From: Leucoraja erinacea
Lineage: Eukaryota
Reading direction: 5' to 3'
Assembly: GCF_028641065.1 (NCBI RefSeq)
Contig: NC_073391.1
Coordinates: 34,782,001 to 34,846,000, forward strand
DNA length: 64,000 nt
A model generated the notes under the pieces. That model ran no database searches. It saw only the letters and a list, made by a program, of their open reading frames with translations, and was not told the DNA's origin. Of this stretch, positions 9,651-61,300 are shown piece by piece (the stretch's first letter is position 1; every line of letters starts with the position of its first letter). The translations under genes were made by a program, and so were the position numbers.

Positions 9651-9656
9651 TTTATT
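9651..9656 (-). terminator. Probable lipase polyadenylation signal AATAAA
   Basis: tttatt on plus strand about 310 nt past the stop codon. Confidence 0.55.
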
Positions 9657-9968: not shown

Positions 9969-10038
9969 CTACTGGGCACAGGGCATCAGAGTTTGCAGGG
10001 TACCCTCAGCAACCATCTGTTTCCCACAGAAGTGGAAC
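9969..10038 (-). CDS. Lipase last coding exon ([22 protein letters not shown])
   Basis: ttgcag acceptor; FC...LxPC terminal disulfide motif; TAG at 9969-9971. Confidence 0.93.
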
Positions 10039-13000: not shown

Positions 13001-16000
13001 GCCTTCTCCCCATAACCCCTGACACCCGTTTGCTATTGCATTTCGTTGTCTCTGTACTGTACACTGACAATGACAATTAAAATTGAATCTGAATCTGACC
13101 CGTTCGATGACGGTGTATAGTACTGTGTGTTGTTACAGAGCCGGTGTAGAAGCCTTTGTTCTCCTGTCTGATAGTGCGGCCCCACACAAACTGAATCAGA
13201 GGTTGCCGATCAAAGCCCCACCTTCTCCGATTCAGACAATCACCCCCCCCCCCCCCAATACCCCAGCACCACTAATACCATCAACCCGAGTCAGTGAATC
13301 ACAGCATCCCTGCCGCGCGAGGCCATTCTGCCCATCGGATCCATGCTGACTGACCTGGCCTGGTCCCGTCCTCGCTCCACGATGATGTTATCAGCGCCGA
13401 GCTGAGGGCTGAAGATGTTGACCACACTGTTGTCCCAGAGGAACTTCACTTTGGTGACGTCTCCAACGTCTAACTCCACGTCCAGAAGGGAGGTGTAGGT
13501 GGTCCCGGGGTGGAGCTTGGTCCTGAAGCCACACAGACGCCAGACAGTGTTAGTTCACCCATCCTACATCCCCGCCCAGACAGAGACGTAGAATCACACA
13601 ACACAGAAACACCTTGCACTAAATGTGCACCTTTCCACTAGATGTTGTATCCTATATCCTGTATCTGTATACTGTGGGTGGCTTGATTGTTATCAGCAAT
13701 AGTCTTTTCTTTGACTGGATAGCACACAACAAAGGCTTTTCACTGTACCTCGGTACACATAACAATAATAAAGTAAACTAAGTGGGCAGCACAGTCGTGC
13801 AGCGGTAGAGTTTACTGTCCCGCTTAGGAAACCTGAACGGAAACCTCTGGAGACTTTGCGCCCCATCCGAGGTTTCCGTGCGATTCCCGGAGGTTCCCGG
13901 AGGTTTTTGTCAGTCTCTCTACCTGCTTCCACTACCTGCAACCTCCGGGAACCGCACGGAAACCTTGGGTGGGGCGCAAAGTCTCCAGAGGTTTACGTTC
14001 AGGTTTCCTAAGTGGGACAGGGGCATTACTACATTACAGCACCAGAGACAGGAGGAAGACTGGCCAAATGTTGTGCCTTCCACCACAGTGATGAATGCTG
14101 TGGTGGATGTTTATGTTAAATTTTTATTGTGTTTCTGTGTGTTCTTTTTCATTGTACCGCTGCTGGCAAATTCATTTCACTTGCTCTTTTTGTGCAAGTG
14201 ACGAATAAAACCGATTGACTGATTGATTGATTGATTGATTGATTGAGACCCGGGTTCGATCCTGACCTCAGGTGCTGTCTGTGTGAAGTTTGCCTGTGCT
14301 CCCTGTGACCACGTGTGTTTCTCCAGAGTTTCCTCCCACATCACAGACATACATGTTTGTGGGTTAATTGGCTTTGGTAAAATTGTAAATTGTCCCGAGT
14401 GCGTAAGATAGAACTAGTGTCTGGGTGATCGCTGGTCGGCATGGACTCGGCAGGCCGACGGGCCTGTTCACACGCTCTTTCATTAAAGTAAACTAAACTA
14501 AACTAAACTAAACTGGCCCGTTGGTCCAATGAAACCTGGCCGACCAAAAAGCATCATCTAAGTTAGTCTCATTTGCCTGCACCAGCCCATATCCCTCTAA
14601 ATCTTTCCTATCCACATGTAGCTAGCGGGTAACATAGGTGGTGAGAGCAGGGATTGAGGGGGGTGGATCTAAGATGCCAGAACTAATTGTTGAGTCTTCC
14701 CGAAGTGTCATGGGCCTAACTCAATGAAACACCTGTGAAGGCAGGTGCCCACTTGATAATCCCAATGATATACTGGCATCTACACGCCTCTGTTTTGTTT
14801 CTTTGCTGACGTGCAGATAGATTATTACTGAATATGAACTTAGTTATTGTCCTATAGCATAAGTGTGTATAGGTAGATTAGATACTACTTTGGCATAGGC
14901 TTGGTTTTCTTGGTTGAGCGCTTATCCTGGTGTCATAGCACGTACATTGTGTTTTAACAGCAATTTAACAAATGCCAGTGTTATAATAAAGAGAGGTTAT
15001 CTAATAAAGTGTCAGAACACATTAATTAAGGTCAGAATGCTGTACTGAAGGCCAGCCAGGCTAATAAAGTGAGGTTTTAATCAAGCTGTTGCGAGGCTGT
15101 TGCTTACTTTGTGACGAGGTGCTGTCGAGAGATGCCCTTGGTGCCGTACAGTGCAACGTTGATGCGACCTGACACCGAGTGAGAGCCGGAGAGTTTCACC
15201 GATACTTTATATCGCCAGACTGTGGAGAGAGAGACCACTGTCAGGCACCGCGCGGGAGGGACAGAGCACGGGCTGTGTGGGGAGAGCGGGTGGGCTGGGA
15301 AGGGAGCGGAGCTGGGTAGAAGGGGAGGAGTGTGGGGCATGGAGGGGTGGGGGAATGAGGGGTGGGGAGAGGGGGAGTGGAGTGCAGGGAGAGAGAGGGA
15401 GGGTGGGGAGCAGGGGTGTGGGGTGAATGGGAGTGTGTGGGGAGAGAGGGATGGGGGGAGAGGGGAGATTGGAATGTGGGGAGAAAGGGGGGGGTGGGGG
15501 GGAGCAGGGGTGTGGGGTGAAGGGGGGTGTGGGGAGAGCAGGAGTGCGGGAGAGGGGAGAGTGGAGTGCACGGAGAGTGGGGGAGCAGGGGTGTGGGGAG
15601 TGGGGGAGGAGTGGGGGAGAGGGGGAAAGTGGGGGGGAGAGGGGGAGGGGTGGGGGGGAAGGGGGACGGTGGGGAGAGGGGGAGGGGGGAGACGGGTGGA
15701 GAGAGGGGGGGAAGGGGTGGGGGAGCTGGATTGTGGGGAGGGGAGTGTGGGGGAGAGAGGGGAGTGTGGGGGGAAGAGGGGGGAAGTGGGGGGAGGGGGA
15801 GGGGGGGGAAGTGTGGGGAAGGGGGAAGTGTGGGGGGAGGGGGGAGTGGGAGGGGAGTGTGGGGGGAGGGGGGGAGAGGGGAAGTGTGGGGGAAGGGGAG
15901 GAATGCTGGGGAAGAGACTGCAGGAGTGGGATTGGATGGGGTATTGGATGCAGTATATTAGACAGGGTGATTGGTTGGGGACGATTACATGGGGGTATAT

Positions 16001-18231
16001 TGTACATTGCGGTGAATGGATGGTGGTGGTTACAGGTTGGGGGGGTGTGAGTGACTCACGTGCGTATGGACTGGACTCGCCACTGTTCAGGTAGAAGGTC
16101 TGATGCAGGAGCCATGGGTCCGGGCGATACGTGCCCATGTCGTACCCCATGGATGGGCAGCCTCCCGCTGGGCATGCAAAGCACTCCCCCTGAAACACAC
16201 CCACGTGTGGTTACAACCGGCGCACCACAAGACCCTCCCCGTAACATGTCCCTGGTGCAGAGAACAATCCCAAATACCAATAGGGGGCCTGAGGACCCCA
16301 TGCTGTTAAGGGACATGTCATTAACTATAAACTTTCCCATTACATTCGACCTGCCAAAGTGCAACACCTCACACTTGCTCGGAGTAAACTCCATCTGCTA
16401 TTTACCTGCCACCATCTCTAACCGGTCTATAACTCATCAGCTCGTCCAAACCCACTACCTGCTCCCTCGACCCTCTCCCCACTCCCCTGCTGAAGTCCTG
16501 CCTCCCCGTTCTCTGCCCCTACCTCACTAATCTCTTCAACTCCTCATTGTCCCAAGGAATTGTCCCCTCCGCTATCAAAACTGCTGCTGTCACACCAATC
16601 TTAAAGAAACCTGGTCTTGATCCCTCCTCTCTCATTAACTACTGCCCAATCTCAAACCTTCCCTTTCTTTCAAAAACCCTGGAGCGTATCGTTGCGTCGC
16701 AACTTCATTCCCACCTCCTTGAGTATAACCTACTTGAACCCCTCCAATCTGGCTTTCGCCCCCTCCATTGCACAGAAACTGCTCACCTCTGCTGACACTG
16801 GTTCCCTCAACATCCTCATCCTCCTCGACCTGAGCGCAGCCTTCGATACAGTGAACCATAACATCCTGCTCACCAGACTCAAAGACCTCGGCATTGAAGG
16901 CTCTGCACTCAGCTGGCTCTGTTCCTACATTTCCAACAGATCCCACTTCATCTCTCTCCACAACCACACCTCTGCTACAGCCACAGTCACTCAAGGCGTT
17001 CTCCAAGGCTCCGTACTCGGCCCCCTCCTCTTCATCATCTACATCCTCCCCCTTGGTCAGATACTCCGCCACTTCAACCTGGACTTCCACTGTTACGCTG
17101 ACGACACCCAGATCTACCTCGGCACCAAATCCCCCCACACCCCCCCACNNNNNNNNNNNNNNNNNNNNNNNNNNNNNNNNNNNNNNNNNNNNNNNNNNNN
17201 NNNNNNNNNNNNNNNNNNNNNNNNNNNNNNNNNNNNNNNNNNNNNNNNNNNNNNNNNNNNNNNNNNNNNNNNNNNNNNNNNNNNNNNNNNNNNNNNNNNN
17301 NNNNNNNNNNNNNNNNNNNNNNNNNNNNNNNNNNNNNNNNNNNNTCATAGGCTCCAAAGCCACACTCAGCAAAATCAATAACCCCACTCTCACCATCGAC
17401 GGCACCACTGTCTCCCCATCTCCCCAGGCCCGCAACCTTGGCGTGATCTTCGATTCCACCCTCTCCCTTGAGCCTCACATCCGCCATGTCATTAAAACCT
17501 CCTTCTTTCATCTCCGCAACATCGCTAAACTCAGACCCTCTCTCACACCTCCCGCTGCTGAAAGACTCATCCATGCCTTCATCTCCTCCCGACTGGACTA
17601 CTGCAACTCACTTCTCCTTGGCATCAGCTCCACCTACATCAACCGACTCCAACTGGTCCAGAACGCAGCTGCCCGACTCATCACCCACTCCAAATCCTGG
17701 CATCACATCACTCCAGTCCTCAAACAACTTCACTGGCTTCCCATCTCCCACCGGATCAACTACAAAATCCTGATCCTCACCTACAAAGCCCTCCACCATC
17801 TGCCCCCCCCATATCTCACTGACCTCCTCTCCCCCTACCAACCCTCACGGTCCCTCAGATCCACTTCAGCCGGTCTCCTCTCCATCCACAAGTCCAACCT
17901 CCGCAGTTTTGGGGACAGAGCCACCTCCAGGGCAGCTCCCAGGCTCTGGAACTCCCTCCCCCAACTGATCCGCAATTCCGTGTCCCTCACCATCTTCCAG
18001 TCCCGCCTCAAGACCCATCTCTTCACCTCTGCCTATCCTTAGCCCCACGTCCCCCTCCCTTTTCATCTGTGCATTAATTGCCTCATATTGTGTTTTGTAT
18101 TGAATTCTGTCTTTGCTTTGTGTACTAGTCATGTCTCTACTATTTATTTCATTCCCCTTACATGTTTTTCCTCTACCTTCTTAATTTTTGTAAGGTGGCC
18201 TTGAGACTCTTGAAAGGCGCCCATAAATAAA

Positions 18232-18266
<35 letters not shown>

Positions 18267-21200
18267 CCTGCTCTATCCTTTGATGGCCTTCCTCACTGCG
18301 TTTTGCAAAGTTGCAACATCACATCCCAACGTTTGCATTCTCTGCCCCAACCTGTGAATGCAAGCTTAGAATAGTCACCACCCTATCAATATTTGTTGTC
18401 ACTTTCCGGGAAGAGTGGACTTGGCCCCAAGCTCCCTCTGTTCATCAACTTTCCACTTCTTCTTCTTTCGTGTGGCGTGCACAGCCTAAAGTTGTAGGTC
18501 AACTTGTTCTATTTGATCTTCCGTTTGCGCACGTCGAGTTGATTGCATTAGCCGAAACAGGGCGGGCCACGTGAAGGTTGCAATCTTCCACCCCAACTTT
18601 CCACTGTGTTCCAGCATTTACCAGGTATGTTGCACCATCTACCATGCATGTCCTGCCCCATATCTGACTTCTCGAATTGCACAAAGTCACACTTGTCAGG
18701 ATTAAACTCTTTCTGCCAACTCTCTGCCCAACTTTCCATCTGATCTGTACGCTGCTGAAGTCTTGGCCATCCATCACACTATCCACAACCACCACTTCCA
18801 CGTCATCCACTAACCTACCAGCCGGACCTCCCTGCATTCAATTTATTAAATGCATCTCACAAGGGTCCCAGCGCCGAACCCTACGGTACTCGACTGGTTA
18901 AAGACTTCCAATCAGAAAAGCATCCTTCTAACACCACACTCTGCCCCCAATCACCAAGCCAGTTTTGGATCCAATTAGCTGGCTCTCCTTGGGCACCATG
19001 TCACCCTCTTGAGCAGCCTGCCACGTGGGACCTTGTCAAATGCCTTACTAAAGTCCACACAGGCAACAGCGACCACCCCACATTCATCAATCTATTTTGT
19101 TGCCTCAAAATAAAAGGATGTGCCTTTAGAAAGAAGATGAGGAAGAATTTCTTTAATCAGAGGGGGGCGAGTCTGTGGAATTCATTGCCACAGACGGCAG
19201 TGGAGGCCAAGTCTTTGGGCATTTTTAAAGCGGAGGTTGACAGGTTCTTGGCTAGCCAGGGTGTCAAAGTTTACAGGGGTTGAGAATGGAACCTTTCCGA
19301 CCCAAAACACCAGGAAGAAGGGCTCCGACTCAAAATGTCACCTATTCTTCTTTTCCGGAGATGCTGCCTGACCCACTGAGTTACTCCAGCACTTCGTGTC
19401 TTCTTATGAACGCACGAACCTCCTCATCAAACTCAGTCAGATTAGAGAGGCAGGATTTCCCTGCACAAGCACTATTACTGTACCGTCTCCATATAGTGGG
19501 GATAATACTATATATTATATATCGCCTATAAATACTATCCTTGAGGATTCTCCCAGTAGTTTCCCCATCACTGATAAAGCCTCGCTGGCCTGCAGTTATC
19601 TGGTGGATCCAAACTGCTCTTCTTATATAAAGGAACGACATTAGGCATCCTCCAGCCTATGCACTGGTGTTTCAATGGCCCAGGTTTTTTATTCCAGTGT
19701 GTCACTTTATCTGCTGCCTGTCACTGAAATCTTCCCGAAATCTTCCCCTACAACCTTACCTGCCGGGTGGGGAGCGGAGCGGAGCGGGTAGAGGTGCGGG
19801 AAGGAAGATGGGGAGCTGAGCAGGGGGAGAGATGGGGGTGCTCAGGGAGTGAGCACCTGCTCTTGTTCTGCAGAGCCAGATAGCTCACATGCACCGCCTT
19901 GTGGTGATGAGAGGGACAGCTGGCTAAAACGTGCCCACTGCTGAATGATTGGGAAACTGTTCATTAGATGTTCCATGTATCAGGAAGAGAAAGTTGCAAA
20001 TTCTTAAATGTGTCTACCCTTGCTGTGTGCATGTGTGAACGTGCATGTGGTGTGTGTGAGCATGTGTGTGTAAGTAAACGTGTATGCCTGTACGTGTGTG
20101 GGGTATGTGTCAGGTCAAGTTCATTGTCATACGCACAGGTACCGTGACGTACAGGTATAATGAAACTCTTGCTTGCAGCAGCATCACAGGCACATGGACT
20201 CAGACACACATAAACATAAATTATAGATACATTCTACAAGACAATGAAAAGAAAAAGACTGCAAAAAAAAGATGTTAGTGCAAACACAATTAGAAAACAA
20301 GTCCCGGTAGTGCAAAAGGTGCATTGCCAATGTGGGATTAGAGCGAGATGACTGGTACTGGGCTATTGATCTGGTTACTACGGTGGACTGTCTAACTCTG
20401 GCTGTTGCCTGGGTTACTGTGGTGGGGTGACTGTGAGTGAAAGTGTTTTCCTTCTGTACTTACTGCCCGAAACTTCTTGTCGGTGGCGCACGGAAAGGCC
20501 ACAAACCCGTCCGGTGACCCAACACTCTCGGTGAAATACTTAACGGCTCGCAGATGGTTGCAGTGGAGAAAATTCATTGAGCCTGTGGGGGACAAAACCA
20601 ACGTCGCTTCATAGATGCTCAACTGAGGCCCAGATCAACGAGGAGACGTCGCAGACGTGGGAGAGACTTGTGAGGGAACGGCGCCCTGCGTGACTCTCAG
20701 AATATTGCAGCAAATATTAAAGTAATTCTGGCAAAGTGAGGCGTTGCACCTCGGTGCGTCAAACTAGGGCAGGGCTTACACAGTGATCGGCCAAGCCCCG
20801 GAGAGTGTTGTAGGTACACGATTCCCTGACAGTGGTGAGTCGGGTGGACAGGGTGGTGACGCTTGCATTCATTGGGAAGGCTGTAAGTACGAAACTACTA
20901 TCTACCTCAATGGAGACCATTGGACCTTCTTTGATCGGGTTTCGCTGACATTATCTTGCACTAAACGTTACTTACATTATTCCCTTTATACCTTATCTGT
21001 TCACAGTGAATAGCTCGATTGGAATCATTTGCTGGCTGGTCAGCGCGCAACAAAAGTTTTTCACTGCACCCCGGAATAGGTGACGATAAACTAAACTCAC
21101 TCAACTCATAAAAGTTGGGACATAATGATGCAGCTGCACGAGTCTTTGGTAAGACCACACTTGGAGTACTCTGTGTAGTTCTTTTCGCCCATTATTGAAG

Positions 21201-24200: not shown

Positions 24201-27200
24201 ACTTAGTACTCCCTGATCCCTTTAGCCACAAGGGCCACATCTAAGTCTTCTGCTCCGTCTCCCTCTCCATCTCCTTCTCCCTCGCAGTCTCTCTCACTCA
24301 CTCACACACATCCTCTCTCTGCCTACATCTCTGCTGACACAGTTCCCACATTGTGGACTGCCTGAGTGTCACCAACCCACACGCTGCCTGTTCTGGGCAC
24401 GGTGATCTTGCTGCTCTGTGGCCGGTCCTGTGCTCCCCGACTCTCCGCCGCGATATGTGACGGTGTGCAGCTCACTAACGGCACCAACCTTTGCTGGGGG
24501 ACTTGATGGAACCGTCCGTGTGAATCACATCAACGAGCAGGGCGTCGGTGGGATCCAGGCGAACCTCAAGGGGGGTGTTCTGGAAGTACGGGGCAACGGG
24601 ATCCAGCCCTGGGGAGTGTAATCTCGGCATCAGTCCGGTGTCCCCAACTCCAGCCGTGAGTCAAACCACGGCTGAACTAGCAGCATCGCCACCCAGTGCC
24701 ACAAACACAATCCCAGAGGTCAACCCCTTAGCTTATAATATCCCTTTACCACTCTATCAAGCTTACCAATTGGTAGAATAGTCAAATAAGCCATATGTCA
24801 TGCTTGGCTTCACCATCGGTCGGGGCATTAAGAAGTCGTGATGCTGCTTTATAGGACTTTGGTTAAGGCTGCGTTTGGAGTATAGCGTGCAGTTCTGGTC
24901 GGCCCATTACTGGAAGGGTGTGGAGGCTTTGGAGAGGGTGCAGAGGAAATTTACTAGAACGATGCCTGGATTAGATGGTATTAGCTACAGGGAGAGACTT
25001 GGATTGTCTACTCTGGAACATCAGAATTAATTGTCGCAGATGGCTGCAGAGGCCAAGGCATTGAGTATTTTTAAGGCGGAGATTGACAAATTCTTGATTA
25101 GTAAGAGTGTCAAACGTTACGGCGGGAAGGCATGAGAATGTTGTTGAGAGGGGAAAATAGACCAGCCATGACTGAATGGTTTAGCAGACTCAATGGACCG
25201 AATGGCCTGATTCTGCTCCTAACTATGAATTTATGAACTAAAGTGTGTATGATCATCTCCGCGACCAATCCGGTGTGACCTCTCCCACCCTCCGCGCAGA
25301 CTTACAGATGTCTAGGAAGTCCACTCTCCACCCACCCAGACTGTGACCCTCCCGATTCCCCGGGTTGGGGGTGGGGGGAGGGGGGAGGAAGAGACCGTAC
25401 CTGTAATGCGGGCGATGCCCGTCTTCCTCCGGCCTGCCTCCCCGGCCGCATGGGCACCCAGTCCGTGCCCCACCAGGTACACGTCTGACACGGTGTAGTT
25501 GTAGTTACTCTGGTACACACAAGGGCAACACATACGATGAGCTAGCACAGACCCAGGTCAGCAGCGTGACGCACACTGTCAGGGGAGACCAGAGTGTGTA
25601 ACTGAGAAAGATGAAGCGGGGCTAGGATTTGGGATTGATCACTTTAGAGGGGGAATGGACAGTTCTGCCACACACACACACACACACTGCAGAGGCTGGT
25701 TATCTGAAACAGAACAGGACCCGATGAGAAACAAACTGCTTCTGGCACTCTAATGTGACCGCTCCACACACTGTTGTCCCTGTCCCTGTTCCATTACACC
25801 CCACGCTGTAGTACAGACAGACTGGGCCTGTTCATTTACAGTCCAACTGTGTACAGGCAGACACTCCCTGTCCCGTTACACCCCAACTGTTGTACAGCTA
25901 CAGTCCCTGTCCCTTTACAATCCCCGCACTGTTGTCTCAGTCCTGTTACACCCCACACCATTCCTGTTCCGTTAAACTCCGCATACCTGTACACGCACTG
26001 TCCTAGTCCCGTTGCACTCTCCATCGTTGTACAGACACGGTCCAATTACACTCCACACTGCCCCTGTTCCGTTACACCCACATTATTCTCCAGGCAGTCT
26101 GTCCCTGTCCCATTACACCCCACACCCTGCTCTCTGGGGCGTTTTGCTGTGAGCAGCGATGGGCAGTGAGTCACTCGCCTGCAGTGCCTCAAGGAAGTAG
26201 ACGATTTCCGCTCCCACCACGCGGACGTTCTGGGCAGCCTGGCTGAACACACACTGGGAGCCCCCTCGCCAGTCGACCCCCACACAGTTAACGTCGTCCG
26301 CTTGTAGAATCGACTGCAGGGAGAGGAGTGAGAGCACAGGTTCAGTCAGAGCGTCACCATCACTGGGACACCATTGCTAGTGTCACACAATGGCTTTGAA
26401 CTGATTGTACATGAGTCAGCCATTCGGCCCAGCTTTTCCATTCTAGCAATCCAGCTCCAACTCTTCACCTCCCATGTGTACTGACTCACAGCTCACACCT
26501 TGCACAAGCCCATCGCTCACACTTTGCACTGCACGCCACATACTGACTCACAGATCACACCTTGCACTAATCCACACCTTGCACTAAGGGCACTCCTCAC
26601 ATCTTGCACTAATCCACACCTCACAATGTGCACAGACCCACAGCTCACACCTTACACTAGTCCACACCTTGCACAGATCAGCTCACCCTGCACTAATCAA
26701 CACATCACACCTTGCACAGATTCACAGCTCACACCTTGTACTGAGCACGCTTTGCACAGATCCACAGCTCACATTGTGAACTGTGCTCACACCTTGCACA
26801 GATTCACAGCTCACACCTTGCACTGAGCACACGCTTTGCACAGATCCACAGCTCACATCGTGCACTGAGCTCACACCTTGCACATATCCACAGCTCACAT
26901 CCTGCACCGAACTCACACCTTGCACAGATCCACAGTCCATTGCGAGTCACCATTTTCCAAGTACCCGTGGATCACCAGGATTGTCCGGTGCTGGGTATTG
27001 AAGTTTGACACATCGACTGTCTGTGGACTGATCCCACTGATTTCCTGCGTAGAGAACACAAATCAAATGCCCGACCACTACCGCTGTTGCTACCTGGGTC
27101 GGCCGGCTGTAAGGAGGGTGCCGGAGTCCGGGAACGCAGTGGCCTGGCCGGGGTGGAAACTAGCGAGCTGTGCGTAGCTTTAGATTTAGTATTATTATTT

Positions 27201-29779
27201 TCACCAGTACCAAGTTACAGTGAACAGCTTTCTTGCATGCTGCAGAGGGTGGTGGGTGCCTGGAAAGCGCTGCATGAGAGATGGCTGAGGCAGATACCGA
27301 GTGGCGTTTAAGACACTTTTGGATAGGTATGGGTATATGTAGGGAATGGGGGGATATGGATTATGTTCAGGTAGATAAGGTTGATACAGTGGCAGAGTTG
27401 CTGCCTTACAGCGCCAGAGACCTCAGTCCAAGCCTGAAAATTGTCCCTAGTACCATTATCCCCCACTGGGGACAATTTACAATTTCACAGAAGTCAATTA
27501 ACCTATGTCTGTATGTCTTTGGAGAGTGGCAGGAAACCGGAGCACTTGGGAAAAATATCACGTGGTCACAGGGGGGGGAATACAAGCTTCGTACACACAT
27601 CACTCGTAGTCAGGATCGAACCCGGGTCTCTGGCGCTGTCATGCCGCGACTTTACCGCTGCGCCACTGTACAGCCTAATAGGAACCTGAGGGCCATTATT
27701 TTCACACAGCGGGCGGTGGGTGTATGGAAAGAGCTGCCAGAGGAATTAGTTGTGGCAAACACTATAACAATATTTTAAAAGACATTTGGATAGGTATATG
27801 GATAGCTATGGAAGGCAGGTGGGAGTAGTGTAGATGGGGCACGTTGGTCGGCACGGGCACGTTGGGCCGAAGGGTCTGTGTAGATGGGGCACGTTGGTCG
27901 GCATGGGCACGTTGGGCCGAAGGGCCTGTTTCCGTGCTGAGCCATGAGCTGTCTTGTGGAACCAGCACACAGCTTCAGAGGAAGGCGCATTTGGGGGCAG
28001 GAGTCGGATTTAGATGCATCGGCGGTAAAGGGTCGGCGGCGGATGTTGCGAGGAGGGATGGGATGTGATGTGATTCGAGCTTCCCCGTGACCCTCTGCCC
28101 GTCCTCCTGGGGGATGGAGATCCGACTGTACCACACGCCCACCCCATCCCCCGGACCCTGCTCTTCTCCCTCTCCCACCCGGCTGTCCGGGGGGAGGGGG
28201 GTGTTACCTGGAAGTTGTCGGGGTTGAGCCTGGTGTAGAGAAGGAAGCGAGCGGCGATCTGCTCGGGGCTCCAGGGAGCCCTGGTCGTGGGTCTCTCCTG
28301 TATTCCGGTCCACGGGTAACCCACCGGGAAGCAACCCAGCCTCTGGAAGCAGATGGGCTGATCTTCAGCTGCCGGTGGGGAGGAAGGACCCGACTGAATG
28401 TGTAGCGTGTGAGCAAACTTCCCCATGCCAGCCCCGCGGCCAGCACCCGGCCACCGCTTCCGGACACACAGTGCTGGAGCAACTCAGCGGCTAGTCCCAA
28501 CCCCAACCTCACCTCTTCCAGAGACGCTGCCTGACCCGCTAAGTTACTCCAGCACTTTGTTTTGTTCCAGATTCCAGCACCTGCAGTTCCTCACTCTCCG
28601 CGCATACGTTCATAGGTCATTTGAGCAGAATTAGGCCATTCGGCCCATCGAATTACTCTGCCATTCAATTATGGCAGATCTATCTTTCCTTTTCACTCAT
28701 TCTCCTGCCTTCTCGGATAGGCATGGACGAGTTGGGCCGAAGGGCCTGTTTATGTGCCATGACTCCATGATAAGGAACTGTGGATGCTGAAATCTTGAGC
28801 TAAGCACGATGCTGGAGGTCTCAGTGGGTCAGGCAGCATCTGTGGTGAGAATGGACAGACTACATCTCGGCTCAGTCTGAGGAGAGGTCCTGACCCGAAA
28901 CATCGCCCTTCCATTTCCTCCACAGATGCTGCTTGACCCACCGAGTTCCTCAAGCACTTTGTGTTTTACTATTCTATGGAAACTTGTACAATGATATTTA
29001 ATCGAACAATGTAACATCAGTCTGAAGAAGGGTCTCGACCCGAAACGTTAACCATTCCTTCTCTCCAGAGATGCTGCCTGACCCGCTGAGTTACTCCAGC
29101 ATTTTGTGTCTACCTTCGATTTAAACCAGCATCAGCAGTTATTTCCTCCACAATGTACCATCCATTGAGAGTTAAATAAAATATAAAGTCTTCTTCTGCA
29201 GTATAATCTACAGTATAATCAGATTTCCGTTGCCTGTAGACCGCATACCATCGGGACATTGCTGCTGAGAGCCGACTGCCTGCCCCTTTTCCGGGGTTAC
29301 GTCCATGCCCGGCTGGTTTTCGAAAGGGACCATGCGCTGCACACCAGCGCCCTGGGGGGTTTCCGGAAACCGCTGGGCACCGTGGGCGGTGGAATGTATC
29401 CTTAACGAGGAGTGGGAAATAGTTATTTAATATTCAGTATTTAAGAATATATGTTTTACTTTGTATTATGGTGGTGGGTTGTTGGTATTGTTTTGTATTG
29501 TACATATCATTTTTGTAAATAATTGATCACAATTATTTTTAGTTTAAACAAAGAGAGATATTCGTCCCAAAGGCACACACCTCCACTGATAGCAAGAGAC
29601 ACAACGGGATAAAAGGGTTGATAGACACAAAATGCTGGAGTAACTCAGCGGGACAGGAGGCATCTCTGGAGGGAAGGAATGGGAGATGTTTCAGGTCGAG
29701 ACCCTTCTTCAATGTCTCCTGCTCTCTTACCACAAATCCTGGAGAGAAGGAGAGCCACAGGAATCCACAGCCTCAGCAT
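9969..29779 (-). CDS. Pancreatic lipase family protein (PNLIP/PNLIPRP-like), complete, 12 coding exons, 1419 nt = 472 aa; nucleophile Ser replaced by Gly
   Basis: Exons joined in phase: 29731-29779, 28208-28368, 26919-27044, 26179-26313, 25401-25509, 24489-24608, 23284-23403, 20464-20582, 16060-16189, 15108-15219, 13355-13522, 9969-10038. Motifs: signal peptide [71 protein letters not shown]-terminal PLAT domain. Exact paralog not assignable by eye. Confidence 0.95.
10948..12102 (-). mobile_element. CR1 LINE RT domain and 3' end, relatively young
   Basis: [30 protein letters not shown], then the 3' tail. Confidence 0.95.
13355..13522 (-). CDS. Lipase coding exon 11 ([10 protein letters not shown]...[14 protein letters not shown]...)
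   Basis: 168 nt, phase 2-2, PLAT motifs. Confidence 0.94.
13815..14024. mobile_element. Second copy of the palindromic MITE, nested in a SINE
   Basis: Same TIRs; interrupts a SINE head at about 13785-13812 that resumes at about 14033 and 14245. Confidence 0.85.
15108..15219 (-). CDS. Lipase coding exon 10 ([11 protein letters not shown]...HLVTK; PLAT)
   Basis: WRYKV PLAT start; cag / gtaagc. Confidence 0.94.
15270..15910. repeat. G-rich low-complexity tract (GGGGA/GTGGGG-like) in a lipase intron
   Basis: Dozens of G3-G7 runs; source of the long Pro/Gly-rich ORFs. Confidence 0.92.
16060..16189 (-). CDS. Lipase coding exon 9 ([16 protein letters not shown]...[12 protein letters not shown])
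   Basis: 130 nt; cag / gtgagt; conserved Cys pattern. Confidence 0.94.
16430..18262 (+). mobile_element. L2-clade LINE (RT and 3' end), inserted in an older antisense CR1, inside a lipase intron
   Basis: [41 protein letters not shown]; (TAT)n tail; CR1 sequence resumes on both sides. Confidence 0.95.
17149..17344. other. Assembly gap (196 N)
   Basis: Run of N. Confidence 1.
18457..18593 (-). mobile_element. Short retroposon with (GAA)n tail and 11-bp target-site duplication
   Basis: CAACTTTCCAC at 18446-18456 and 18594-18604; minus-strand end GCACGCCACACGAAAGAAGAAGAA. Confidence 0.75.
20464..20582 (-). CDS. Lipase coding exon 8 ([20 protein letters not shown]...KFRA)
   Basis: Catalytic His motif CNHLR; cag / gtaagt. 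Confidence 0.95.
21265..22149 (-). mobile_element. Penelope-like retroelement 3' part (GIY-YIG endonuclease), nested in an L1-like 3' end (21221-22478)
   Basis: [35 protein letters not shown]; 15-bp duplication AGGTAAAACAACAAA at 21250 and 22150. Confidence 0.92.
23284..23403 (-). CDS. Lipase coding exon 7 ([27 protein letters not shown]...GIWE; lid)
   Basis: 120 nt, canonical splice sites, lid start Cys. Confidence 0.95.
23600..24100. repeat. CT/CA-rich low-complexity tract
   Basis: Degenerate (CT)n and (CA)n. Confidence 0.9.
24489..24608 (-). CDS. Lipase coding exon 6 ([32 protein letters not shown])
   Basis: Catalytic Asp exon, 120 nt, canonical splice sites. Confidence 0.95.
25401..25509 (-). 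CDS. Lipase coding exon 5 ([36 protein letters not shown])
   Basis: Nucleophile-elbow exon; cag / gtacgg splice sites. Confidence 0.95.
25770..26130. repeat. Degenerate minisatellite (TCCCTGTCCCGTTACACCCC-like unit)
   Basis: Repeated unit visible by eye. Confidence 0.8.
26179..26313 (-). CDS. Lipase coding exon 4 ([15 protein letters not shown]...YFLEALQ), GC donor
   Basis: 135 nt; donor CAG|gcgagt is required for frame. Confidence 0.9.
26483..26934. repeat. Minisatellite (CAGCTCACACCTTGCACAGATCCA-like) overlapping the lipase exon 3 donor
   Basis: Repeated unit; the last copy is the exon end. Confidence 0.88.
26919..27044 (-). CDS. Lipase coding exon 3 (EISGISPQ...[18 protein letters not shown])
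   Basis: acgcag acceptor; phase-0 donor AAG|gtgtga; beta5-loop HGY motif. Confidence 0.92.
28208..28368 (-). CDS. Lipase coding exon 2 ([14 protein letters not shown]...LNPDNFQ)
   Basis: cag acceptor, gtaac donor, conserved pancreatic lipase N-terminus. Confidence 0.95.
29731..29779 (-). CDS. Lipase coding exon 1 (signal peptide [16 protein letters not shown])
   Basis: ttctccttcag|ATG...TGTG|gtaaga; 49 nt, phase 1 fits next exon. Confidence 0.88.
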
Positions 29780-30484: not shown

Positions 30485-30600
30485 CTTTGTCTGTGTAGAG
30501 TGGCGGGCGTGGGTGTGCTGCTCCCCACTGCTCCTTATATCCCCACCCACAGGCGCCGGTGCTGCAGTGTGAGAGGTTCCACAGCTGTACGGTGAGAATG
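30485..30600 (-). promoter_or_regulatory. Putative lipase promoter and short non-coding exon 1
   Basis: Minus strand ATATAAG at 30534-30540, then a short segment ending AAAG|gtgagt (exon boundary 30485); E-box CAGCTG at 30582-30587. Confidence 0.6.
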
Positions 30601-31719
30601 CCAAGCACCCACTACACATGCTGCAACAAGGTCAGCGTACACTGGCGGAGAAAGTAAACCCTGATGTTAACCCCTTCTTCAAATGTGTGTGCGTGTGTGC
30701 GTATGTATGTTTGTGTACATGTATGTGTATGTGTGTACTGTGGCACACACGTGCACTGAGTTCATGTGTGTGTATGTGTGCTTGGGTATGTATGTGCATG
30801 ATCGTATGTGTCTCTGTGTGCGCATGGCTGTGTGTGTGTGTGCGTCTAGGTGTGTGTGAGGGATCAAATTCAGAACAGTACACGACTCTCATCCAAGTCC
30901 CCTGTCAGGGCAATGGAGACACAAGGAACTGCAGATGCTGGAATTTTGATCAAAATACAAAGTGCTGGAGGAATTCAACAGGTCAGGCAGCATCTGTGGT
31001 AGGAAATTGACAGCTGATGTTTTGGGTCGGGACCCTTCTTGACTCTGAACAATAACAACATTTAAATGATATTTGGACGAGTACATGGATAGGAAACGTT
31101 TAGAGGGATTTGGGCCAAATGCTGATAAATTGGACTAGCTTAGATATGGCATTTCGGTCACCATGGGCGAGTTGGGCCACAGGGCCTGTTTCCGTGCTAT
31201 ATGACAGCATGGTTCTTTGGAGAAGCTGAGGTCAGAATAGATCAGCCACACCATAGTGACTGGTGGGCTAGGATCGAGGGCCGAATGGCCTACTGCTGCT
31301 CATTGTGTTCCTGTGCTTGGGTCAGTGTTATGGTGGTGAGTTAATTATTAAAATCACTTGCTTACCTTCAGTAAGATTTTACCAGATCACCAGTGTGGAG
31401 TCTTTCTGTCCTTGCAGACACCTCTACTGTTGTTACCATCTGTGGACCTTGAACGATAAATGAAACCTTGACTCTTTGTAAATTAACTTGAGTCTTATCT
31501 TGAACAAAACACTGCAGCACCTGAGTAAACCAGACCTTCTCTGGAGCGAGGATCTCACCATTCTTGGCAGGGAAGGCGGTTGGCGGGGAGCTGGGACTGA
31601 TTGGGGGGGGGGGGGGGAAGGCACGTACAGTTAGTATGAGCTGAGACATTGCCCGGGCCTGGAGTAATATGCTTCAGGAGTTACAGAGGTTCCCAGTCAC
31701 TGTGTGATGCACCAGATTA

Positions 31720-58300: not shown

Positions 58301-61300
58301 ATATTATTATTATTATTAAAAGGGAAAGATTAAATAGGGCCCTGAGGGGCCATGTTTTCATACACGGTGGTAGATGTATGGAACGAGCTGTGGGAGGAGG
58401 TAGTAGTGGCAGGTATTATAACAACATTTAACAGACACTTGGACAAGTACATGGCTAGGAATGGTTTAGGGATATGGGGAATCTTGGGAGAATGGGACTA
58501 GTTTGAATGTGGCGTGGACGAGTTGGTGCAAAGGGCCTGTTTCCATGCTGTGTGATTCTGGCTCTCTGACCGCACTGTGTTCTCCTCCAGATGAAGGCCT
58601 GCGTGCTGTACCTGTACCCCGACTCCAAGTCCGTGCACCTGACGCTGCGGCCCCTCTTCCTGCAGCCGGGCGCGGATGTGCAGCTGCCCAGTGGCCCGCC
58701 CGTCAGCGAGGTGCTGCAGCACTGCACCGTCGCCTACTACCAAAAGGGCGCCGGCGTCACCTTCCGGGCGGAAGATGGATCGTTTGTTTACTCTCGCGTA
58801 AGTCGCTCCCCTTCCCTCCCCCACTCAAACCTTTTCCCCAGGGTGGAAATGTGAAAGACTAGAGGGCAACGGTTTAAAGGAGAGGTGCTGGGCACGTTTT
58901 TGTTTTTTACACAGAGGGTGGCAGGTGCCTGGAACGCTCTGCCAGGGGTGGTGGTGGAGGCAGATACGATAGTGGCATTTAAGAGGCTCTTAGATGGACA
59001 CATACAGTGGCTTGCAAAAGTATTCATACCCCTTGAACTTTTCCACATTTTGCCACGTTACAACCACAAACGTAAATGTATTTTATTGGGATTTTATGTG
59101 ATAGACCAACACAAAGTGGTGCATAATTGTGAAGTGGAAGGAAAATGATACATGGTTTTCAAATTTTTTTACTAATTAAAAAACTGAAAAGTGTGTAGTG
59201 CAAAAGTATTCAGCCCCCCTGAGTCAATACTTTGTAGAACCACCTTTCGCTGCAATTACAGCTGCAAGTCTTTTGGGGTATGTCTCTACCAGCTTTGCAC
59301 ATCTAGAGACTGAAATTTTTGCCTATTCTTCTTTGCAAAATAGCTCAAGCTCAGTCAGATTGGATGGAGAGCGTCTGTGAACAGCAATTTTCAAGTCTTG
59401 CCAGAGATTCCCAATTGGATTTAGGTCTGGACTTTGACTGGGCCATTCTAACCGATGAATATGCTTTGATCTAAACCATTCCATTGTAGCTCTGGCTGTA
59501 TGTTTAGGGTCGTTGTCCTGCTGGAAGGTGAACCTCCGCCCCAGTCTCAAGTCTTTTGCAGACGCTAACAGGTTTTCTTCCAAGATTGGCCTGTATTTGG
59601 CTCCATCCGTCTTCCCATCAACTCTGACCAGCTTCCCTGTCCCTGCTGAAGAAAAGCGTCCCCACAGCATGATGCTGCCACCACCTTGTTCCACAGTGGG
59701 GGTGGTGTGTTCAGGGTGATGTGCAGTTAGTTTTCCGCCACACATAACGTTTTGCATTTAGGCCAAAAACTTCAATTTTGGTCTCATCTGACCAGAGCAC
59801 CTTCCTCCACATGTTTGCTGTGTCCCCCACATGGCTGTGGCAAACTGCAAACAGGACTTCTTATGGCTTTTTTTTTTCAACAATGGCTTTTTTCTTGCCA
59901 CTCTTCCATAAAGGCCCGATTTGTGGAGTGCACGACTAATAGTTGTCCTGTGGACAGATTCTCCCACCTGAGCTGTGGATCTCTGCAGCTCCTCCAGAGT
60001 TACCATGGGCCTCTTGGCTGCTTCTCTGATCAATGCTGTCCTTGCCCGGTCTGTCAGTTTAGGTGGACGGCCATGTCTTGGTAGGTTTGCAGTTGTGCCA
60101 TACTCTTTCCATTTTCGGATGATGGATTGAACAGTGCTCCGTGAGATGTTCAAAGCTTGGGATATTTTTTTATAACCTAACCCTGCTTTAAACTTCTCCA
60201 CAACTTTATCCCTGACCTGTCTGGTGTGTTCCTTGGGCTTCATTATGCTGTTTGTTCACTAATGTTCTCTAACAAACCACTGAGGCCTTCACAGAACAGC
60301 TGTATTTATACTGAGATTAGATTACACACAAGTGGACTCTATTTACTAATTAGGTGACTTCTGAAGGCAATTGGTTGCACTGGATTTTATTTAGGGGTAT
60401 CAGAGTAAAGGGGGCTGAATACTTTTGCACGCCACACTTTTCAGTTTTTTATTTGTAAAAAATTTGAAAACCATGTATCATTTTCCTTCCACTTCACAAT
60501 TATGCGCCACTTTGTGTTGGTCTATCACATAAAATCCCAATAAAATACATTTACGTTTGTGGTTGTAACATGACAAAATGTGGAAAAGTTCAAGGGGTAT
60601 GAATACTTTTGCAAGGCACTGTAGATATGGAGGGATATGCATCATGTTCAGGCTGATGAGATTAGTTTAGCAGCATTGCGTCTGGCACAGGCATTGTGGG
60701 CTGTAGATCCGATGTGGTACTGTTTTATTCATATCTATTCAAGATGCATGCAAGATATAATACAATGATTCCAGGACTCGTTCTTTTAGATTTTTGGATA
60801 GATTCGGTATTCTAGGCTGAGCCCAGGCTCAGAGGTGACAGACACACTGAGTGACATTTGCCACCCATTTCCTTCCGGCTCGCATTCCCACTCTCACTGT
60901 GGTGCCGAGAGCCTGGCAACCTATTGGCTGTTCACCCCTCCAGCCATTTAGTTTAGCGATCCAGCATGGAAGCAAGTCCTTCAGCCCATCGAGTCCGGGC
61001 CGACCAGCGATCACCTTTATTCACACCAGTTCTATCCTATACACTCGGGTCAATTTAATGAATCCAATTAACCTATTTGCACGTCTTTAGAATGTGGAAG
61101 GTAACTGGAGCATCCGTGGAAAACCCACACACTCACGGGGGAAAAGGTACAAACTCTGTACAGACAGCACCCGTAGTCAGGATCGAACCAAGGTCTCTGG
61201 TGCTGTAAGGCAGCAGCTCTACCACTGTGCCGTTTGTAGGGTAGCTGCATTTTGTTCTGAGGCTTCACATCTTAACCGTCAGCTCTTAACTCCTGGCCCT

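Follow-up and report, generated by a model that had tools for sequence, protein, structure and literature searches.

The window, a 64-kb stretch of Leucoraja erinacea DNA, carries a pancreatic-type lipase gene in which the catalytic serine is replaced by glycine. This raises the questions of whether the replacement is real, whether the gene is intact and what a pancreatic lipase without its nucleophile might do. Coding exon 5 (gene exon 6) coincides exactly with 25401..25509 of the minus strand and encodes a nucleophile elbow reading GHGLG. The codon GGA at 25464-25462 (TCC on the plus strand) specifies Gly173 in place of catalytic Ser152, and alignment of this exon with solved pancreatic lipases set the Gly opposite their Ser (catalytic sites are numbered as in the porcine enzyme and colipase contacts as in the human enzyme, after PMC7094207). 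The original prediction had read the same codon at 25462-25464 with no strand given; it lies on the minus strand. Twelve coding exons running from 29779 down to 9969 on this strand join in frame to give 472 amino acids followed by TAG. The spliced protein is identical at 472/472 residues to the L. erinacea NCBI protein P0128, bearing out the earlier claim of an intact gene. The features of the gene are as follows.

30570..30598, minus strand: E-box CAGCTG with two flanking TC-box-like words, similar to a pancreatic PTF1 site, a weak lead
30535..30541, minus strand: TATA-like box GATATAA, a putative function given its position above the non-coding exon
30485..30515, minus strand: likely non-coding exon 1, start approximate, with a GT donor after 30485 and a junction also in the P0128 model
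29731..29779, minus strand: coding exon 1, with the ATG and a signal-peptide-like stretch
28208..28368, minus strand: coding exon 2
26919..27044, minus strand: coding exon 3, with the beta5 loop IHGYLE (Asp79 to Glu)
26179..26313, minus strand: coding exon 4, with GC as the splice donor at its end
25401..25509, minus strand: coding exon 5, with GHGLG and the Gly173 codon GGA at 25462..25464
24489..24608, minus strand: coding exon 6, with catalytic Asp176, Val178 (LDPVAP) and a polar beta9 loop
23284..23403, minus strand: coding exon 7, with a clade-specific Cys241 and the first part of the lid
20464..20582, minus strand: coding exon 8, with the lid end, catalytic His263 and Tyr267 to Val
16060..16189, minus strand: coding exon 9, with a clade-specific linker motif
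15108..15219, minus strand: coding exon 10, start of the PLAT domain
13355..13522, minus strand: coding exon 11, PLAT domain with Lys400
9969..10038, minus strand: coding exon 12, including TAG
9651..9656, minus strand: AATAAA polyadenylation signal

Splice sites are GT-AG in 10/11 introns. The remaining intron has a GC donor after 26179; this junction is also present in P0128, and the donor is unchanged in contigs of sequencing runs X3 and X5. No stops, frameshifts or lost splice sites were found in the gene. The parts that had been described as retained are each present in the spliced protein, namely, Asp (LDP, residue 196), His (CNHL, residue 283), a 23-residue lid between two cysteines, the cysteines of six canonical pairs (presumably bonded) and the Pfam domains Lipase (PF00151) and PLAT (PF01477). 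A signal peptide is likely, judging from the hydrophobic N terminus. An AlphaFold2 model had a mean pLDDT of 78.6, with the lid poorly predicted, and the top 12 structure matches of this model were all pancreatic lipases (TM 0.91-0.95 by target). The NCBI models P0128 and P0001 carry 45 extra N-terminal residues, corresponding to 30485-30620 of the minus strand and running through the TATA-like box; the extension in P0128 is likely a mis-prediction due to a wrong start.

GGA is two changes away from every Ser codon. Coding exon 5 was unchanged in contigs of runs X1, X3 and X5, which carry three organism labels; the listed differences (4/4 for X1, possibly the source sample, 19/19 for X3 and 33/34 for X5) included none within this exon; X6 does not cover it. 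These contigs, together with the presence of Gly in the proteins of eight further species, refute a base-call or assembly error at the codon, which had been called unlikely at the outset and now retains almost no probability.

The spread of the Gly was determined for the 20 species with both this gene and an active-type copy. Isoforms (P0135, P0137 and P0138), partial proteins (P0133 and P0139) and a poor model (P0009) lie outside these counts, as do Rhinoraja and S. canicula, for which there was no full pair. Gly occupied the nucleophile position in 9/20 orthologues, comprising all eight batoids (Leucoraja, Amblyraja, Pristis, Narcine, two Mobula, Hemitrygon and Hypanus) and one of 12 sharks, Heptranchias, whose Gly is known from database records only. 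The other 11 shark orthologues kept Ser. Conservation of the Gly across sharks and rays, a question raised by the original prediction, was thus found for the rays but not for the sharks. Asp176 and His263 were retained in 20/20 orthologues, and the active-type copy had Ser in all 20 of the same species. An alpha/beta-hydrolase without Ser cannot form an acyl-enzyme; hence, by established chemistry, loss of Ser removes serine-hydrolase catalysis, and the sequence makes it near certain that the product of the Gly gene would lack this activity. Among 357 proteins fetched, the elbow was readable in 313 and contained Gly 12 times, 9 times in this clade and 3 times in unrelated proteins, indicating that sporadic Ser-to-Gly replacement exists elsewhere in the wider family. 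Four lipase-family proteins that do not belong to the clade (P0162, P0192, P0267 and P0213) likewise have Gly or Asn in place of the nucleophile. No orthologue of the Gly gene was seen for Rhinoraja, in which the active copy was found, or for Callorhinchus; these may be cases of loss or of absent annotation.

One rival reading is a dying duplicate, that is, a young pseudogene whose frame is still unbroken. The gene evolves slightly faster than the active copy, with mean pairwise protein distances, as ratios to those of the active copy, of 1.40 in batoids, 1.19 in sharks and 1.35 between them. Of 427 sites, 186 are invariant in the Gly-gene clade versus 216 in the active copy. The absence of a visible orthologue in Rhinoraja and Callorhinchus would also fit such decay, as would the finding that 4 of 7 listed differences among skates in three exons were non-synonymous, although these are too few for dN/dS. 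A protein evolving only 1.2 to 1.4 times faster than its active counterpart, however, is not behaving as a pseudogene, and long open frames with Gly are present in eight batoids, among which are skates, an electric ray, a sawfish and stingrays. In a comparison of two skates, the Gly gene differed at 22/449 residues versus 36/434 for the active copy. Exons 4 and 5 differed from the X5 contigs at 1/244 bases, compared to 32/635 for the intron at 25510-26178 (P = 0.0005; 33 of 34 differences listed); against X3 there was 1 exon difference and 16 in the intron, a borderline result (P = 0.052). The recent pseudogene that the original prediction had considered is, therefore, not what was found, and a dying duplicate is very unlikely.

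A Pfam search of the genome detected two pancreatic-type lipase genes, both on the same contig (C15) and separated by 10 Mb. The second gene and the neighbors of the first within the window are as follows.

G000:C15:24450670-24474330 (L003-L005): active-type copy encoding P0349, intact, with GHSLG and LDPAKP
Window 35.0-47.1 kb, plus strand: TAF5-like gene, by Pfam
Window about 49.8 kb, minus strand: ATP5MK/USMG5-like gene, by Pfam
Window 53-64 kb, plus strand: PDCD11/RRP5-like gene, by Pfam

Beyond the window, at G000:C15:34702000-34767400 (L017 and L011), KAZALD1-like and TLX-type homeobox genes lie downstream, placing the window lipase between TLX and TAF5. The names TAF5, ATP5MK/USMG5 and PDCD11/RRP5, like KAZALD1 and TLX, are those that we take these neighbors to bear, and TLX and TAF5 are presumably not adjacent in human. 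Transposase remnants in two frames at 59323-60255 of the window (minus strand) are, we assume, Tc1/mariner-like. The window gene and the P0349 copy have the same layout of 12 coding exons with the same phases. The latter has a GDNF-receptor gene on one side and an enolase-like exon on the other and is at the usual lipase locus; eno4 is among the usual lipase neighbors in fishes (PMC9386070). A GC donor also occurs in its last intron, and its GC3 is 0.33 versus 0.73 in the window gene. The cloned smooth-hound lipase SmDL, described as active in PMC7094207, is of the same, active type.

In trees, the window gene nested among vertebrate pancreatic lipases and its orthologues formed one clade (support 100/99). 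The sister of this clade was a sturgeon and paddlefish gene (P0029, P0154 and P0155; 100/99, LG+G4), and this grouping recurred with an SH-aLRT of 95 in a quick mixture-model tree and 1.0 in FastTree; the stems of both groups are longish. The sturgeon proteins are 55-57% identical to the window protein, and other non-elasmobranch relatives are 53% or less. This divergent sturgeon/paddlefish lipase also includes P0156, and one copy lies on a short Logan contig. AU tests (LG+G4, 27 rows, the mammalian PNLIP row being absent from the trees) rejected orthology of the window gene with mammalian PLRP1 (P = 0.000116); within amniotes, PLRP1 falls together with PLRP2. They also rejected a single clade of both copies, the pattern expected had the active copy been duplicated in elasmobranchs only (P = 0.004). 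Rejection of both groupings suggests that the duplication likely took place before cartilaginous and bony fishes diverged. The gene tree is compatible with a single origin of the Gly (P = 0.16). As sharks are monophyletic, two losses of Ser constitute the shortest account, and on these sequences Ser was probably lost twice, in batoids and separately in Heptranchias.

The residue two positions after the catalytic Asp is Val178 in the window protein. Val was present at this position in 19/20 orthologues and Ile in 1/20, with 11 of these 20 keeping Ser. Elsewhere, position 178 was Ala in 49/50 active-type lipases and in the sturgeon sister and Val in 6/6 PLRP1 proteins; the 1RP1 alignment likewise has Val in dog PLRP1 and Ala in human lipase. 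In work by Roussel and by Crenon, both of 1998, Val178 is said to clash with the substrate acyl chain, and a double reversion at 178 and 180 reportedly reactivates PLRP1. The clade carries only the first of these two PLRP1 changes, position 180 being Pro in 19/20 orthologues and Ala in PLRP1. Since Val or Ile178 occurs in all 20 orthologues, even in Ser-keeping sharks, the pocket was likely blocked first and Ser lost later; Gly is most likely a late step in an already blocked enzyme. In the simplest history suggested by the sequences, the common ancestor of sharks and rays would have acquired a blocked pocket, in convergence with PLRP1, and Ser could then be lost without further cost to activity. 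Inactivation by a different route from PLRP1, as first proposed, is thus upheld by the gene tree as regards a separate origin (AU P = 0.0001) but not as regards Val178, which is common to both (Val or Ile in 20/20 orthologues).

Further changes surround the pocket. D79E/K and R256K/M were found in 20/20 orthologues, A260 and Y267 were also changed in 20/20 and L264F was present in 16/20; these pocket and lid residues presumably serve to hold the lid open. Several of the changed positions are pocket contacts in the 1LPB docking tables of PMC10586085. Site 256 is not essential, as the active enzyme SmDL has His there (PMC7094207). A beta9-loop Leu is replaced by Lys in 8/8 batoids, and this polar loop may weaken interface binding. 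Seventeen sites are invariant in the clade and distinguish it from 90% or more of active lipases; among them are those of a linker motif (Y329, G332, R335, L341 and H342) and Cys241. Cys133 is also found in 20/20. The basking shark protein (Cetorhinus, P0142) keeps Ser but has H151Y (GYSLG) and H75Q (IQGY), a further decay around the active site.

One reading of these changes is a lipase of altered specificity in Ser-keeping sharks and sturgeons, with batoids and Heptranchias having lost catalysis while the gene was kept for a second, non-catalytic role. Such a history would account for Ser in 11/12 sharks alongside an unbroken Asp176 and His263, and the sturgeon sister combines Ser and Ala178 with shared changes at 256, 264 and 267. 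However, the Val or Ile178 of all sharks, the H151Y and H75Q of Cetorhinus and the probable double loss of Ser argue against this explanation, which we consider unlikely.

The closest known relatives compare as follows. Human PNLIP (1LPA) and PNLIPRP2 have the same architecture at about 46-51% identity but possess the full Ser-Asp-His triad, Ala178 and a hydrophobic beta9 loop. The active shark and ray lipases (SmDL and P0349) share exon layout, phases, fold and lid length, with GHSLG and LDPAKP in P0349 versus GHGLG and LDPVAP in the window protein. The sturgeon/paddlefish protein, the sister, has several of the pocket changes while keeping Ser152, Ala178 and Asp79. Mammalian PLRP1 (1RP1 and 2PPL) has in common the pancreatic-lipase fold, a full lid, PLAT and Val178, and both proteins are kept beside an active lipase. 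PLRP1, however, keeps Ser152 and has Ala180, whereas the window gene has Gly152 (as in all batoids, and in 9/20 orthologues overall) and Pro180 (19/20). The window gene is also not in tandem with the active copy, being located next to TAF5 at a distance of 10 Mb, and its clade is changed further at 79, 256, 260, 264 and 267 and in the beta9 loop. The window protein thus belongs to the pancreatic-lipase subfamily but is, by sequence, not an active lipase and, by descent, not a PLRP1; it may work like PLRP1.

No reads of RNA runs X22, X23 and X24 fell on 25290-26350 in the 1-5% of each run that was covered (tissue unknown). The PTF1-like motif at 30570..30598 (minus strand) lies 46 bases above the TATA-like box, and neither pattern matches anywhere else in the 64-kb window; the pattern was set after the sequence was seen. 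The P0349 copy has a tighter PTF1-like match upstream than the window gene. Catshark pancreas transcripts are annotated as Pnliprp1 and Pnliprp2 in PMC4362833. These two annotations would fit two gene copies but do not identify the window gene; lipase terms had no match in two text supplements of that study, whose other files may name transcripts.

A possible role, ranked second, is that of an enzyme-dead secreted protein unrelated to colipase, which would bind a lipid, a bile alcohol or a protein partner through a remodelled surface and serve as a carrier, a chaperone or in gut defence. The 17 clade-specific invariant sites, with the linker motif and Cys241, and the Cys133 found throughout the clade are consistent with such a surface. 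Colipase dependence is patchy in sharks, SmDL shows no activation by colipase (PMC7094207) and the colipase gene of this genome is itself doubtful. In the only colipase gene found (G000:C24:19070626-19074240, L020 and L021, ~19.07 Mb), the residue counted as Arg65 is Gly, and joining exons 2 and 3 (G000:C24:19072220-19074125) through the expected splice sites shifts the frame by one base; the gene looks frameshifted, by either an assembly error or a true loss, and only a weak alternative splice pair gives an open 118-amino-acid frame. Against this role, the linker is about equally conserved in the active copy (0.79 versus 0.78), and Val178, Phe264 and the beta9-loop Lys would be expected to narrow or polarize the acyl pocket. 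These pocket changes, and the Leu-to-Lys change in 8/8 batoids, also weaken the lipid carrier suggested by the original prediction.

The reading ranked first, tentatively and with a probability approaching even, is that of a PLRP1-like competitor, i.e., a secreted enzyme-dead protein dampening fat digestion by competing for colipase or for the bile-salt/lipid interface. In this mechanism, a pancreatic lipase would have been duplicated before sharks and bony fishes diverged, the shark-ray ancestor would have acquired Ala178Val along with further pocket changes, and batoids and Heptranchias would later have lost Ser independently of each other. The active lipase would then face competition for colipase or the interface from an enzyme-dead protein secreted by the pancreas, which would act as a brake on fat digestion. 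The ranking draws on the following observations. PLRP1 provides a precedent, as it is reported to be inactive and to compete for colipase, with a knockout that raises lipolysis (PMC6386725 and PMC8287333). The colipase contacts of lipase given in PMC7094207 (N241, S244, D248 and K400) are kept in 20/20 orthologues. Finally, the lipase of a stingray, a batoid, is activated by colipase (PMC3098174 and PMC7094207). The contact residues are equally invariant across all other family members and, hence, do not single out the competitor role. Counting against this role are also the indifference of SmDL to colipase, the doubtful state of the only colipase gene found here, the polar beta9 loop of batoids and the lack of the Ala180 of PLRP1 throughout the clade.

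Databases already model the Gly proteins but name them by best hit, as "pancreatic triacylglycerol lipase-like" or "lipase-related protein 2-like", and the present result corrects these names. Among the literature matches listed, with subscription journals outside the scope, there was no description of the paralogue, of its Gly or of its Val178. A broader account, plausible but with a probability rather below even, is that a brake on lipolysis evolved twice from different duplicates through the same Ala178Val change: once as mammalian PLRP1 and once as an older shark and ray paralogue that then lost Ser twice, with the sturgeon, shark and ray proteins forming an enzyme-to-pseudoenzyme series. 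The colipase-competing brake of PLRP1 has so far rested on one mammalian lineage. If the account is true, an independent and much older case of Val178 would indicate that such a brake is a repeatable solution, and the three natural steps would provide a series for testing the change from enzyme to pseudoenzyme. The finding is also relevant to the part that colipase plays in the digestion of sharks and rays, which is still debated.
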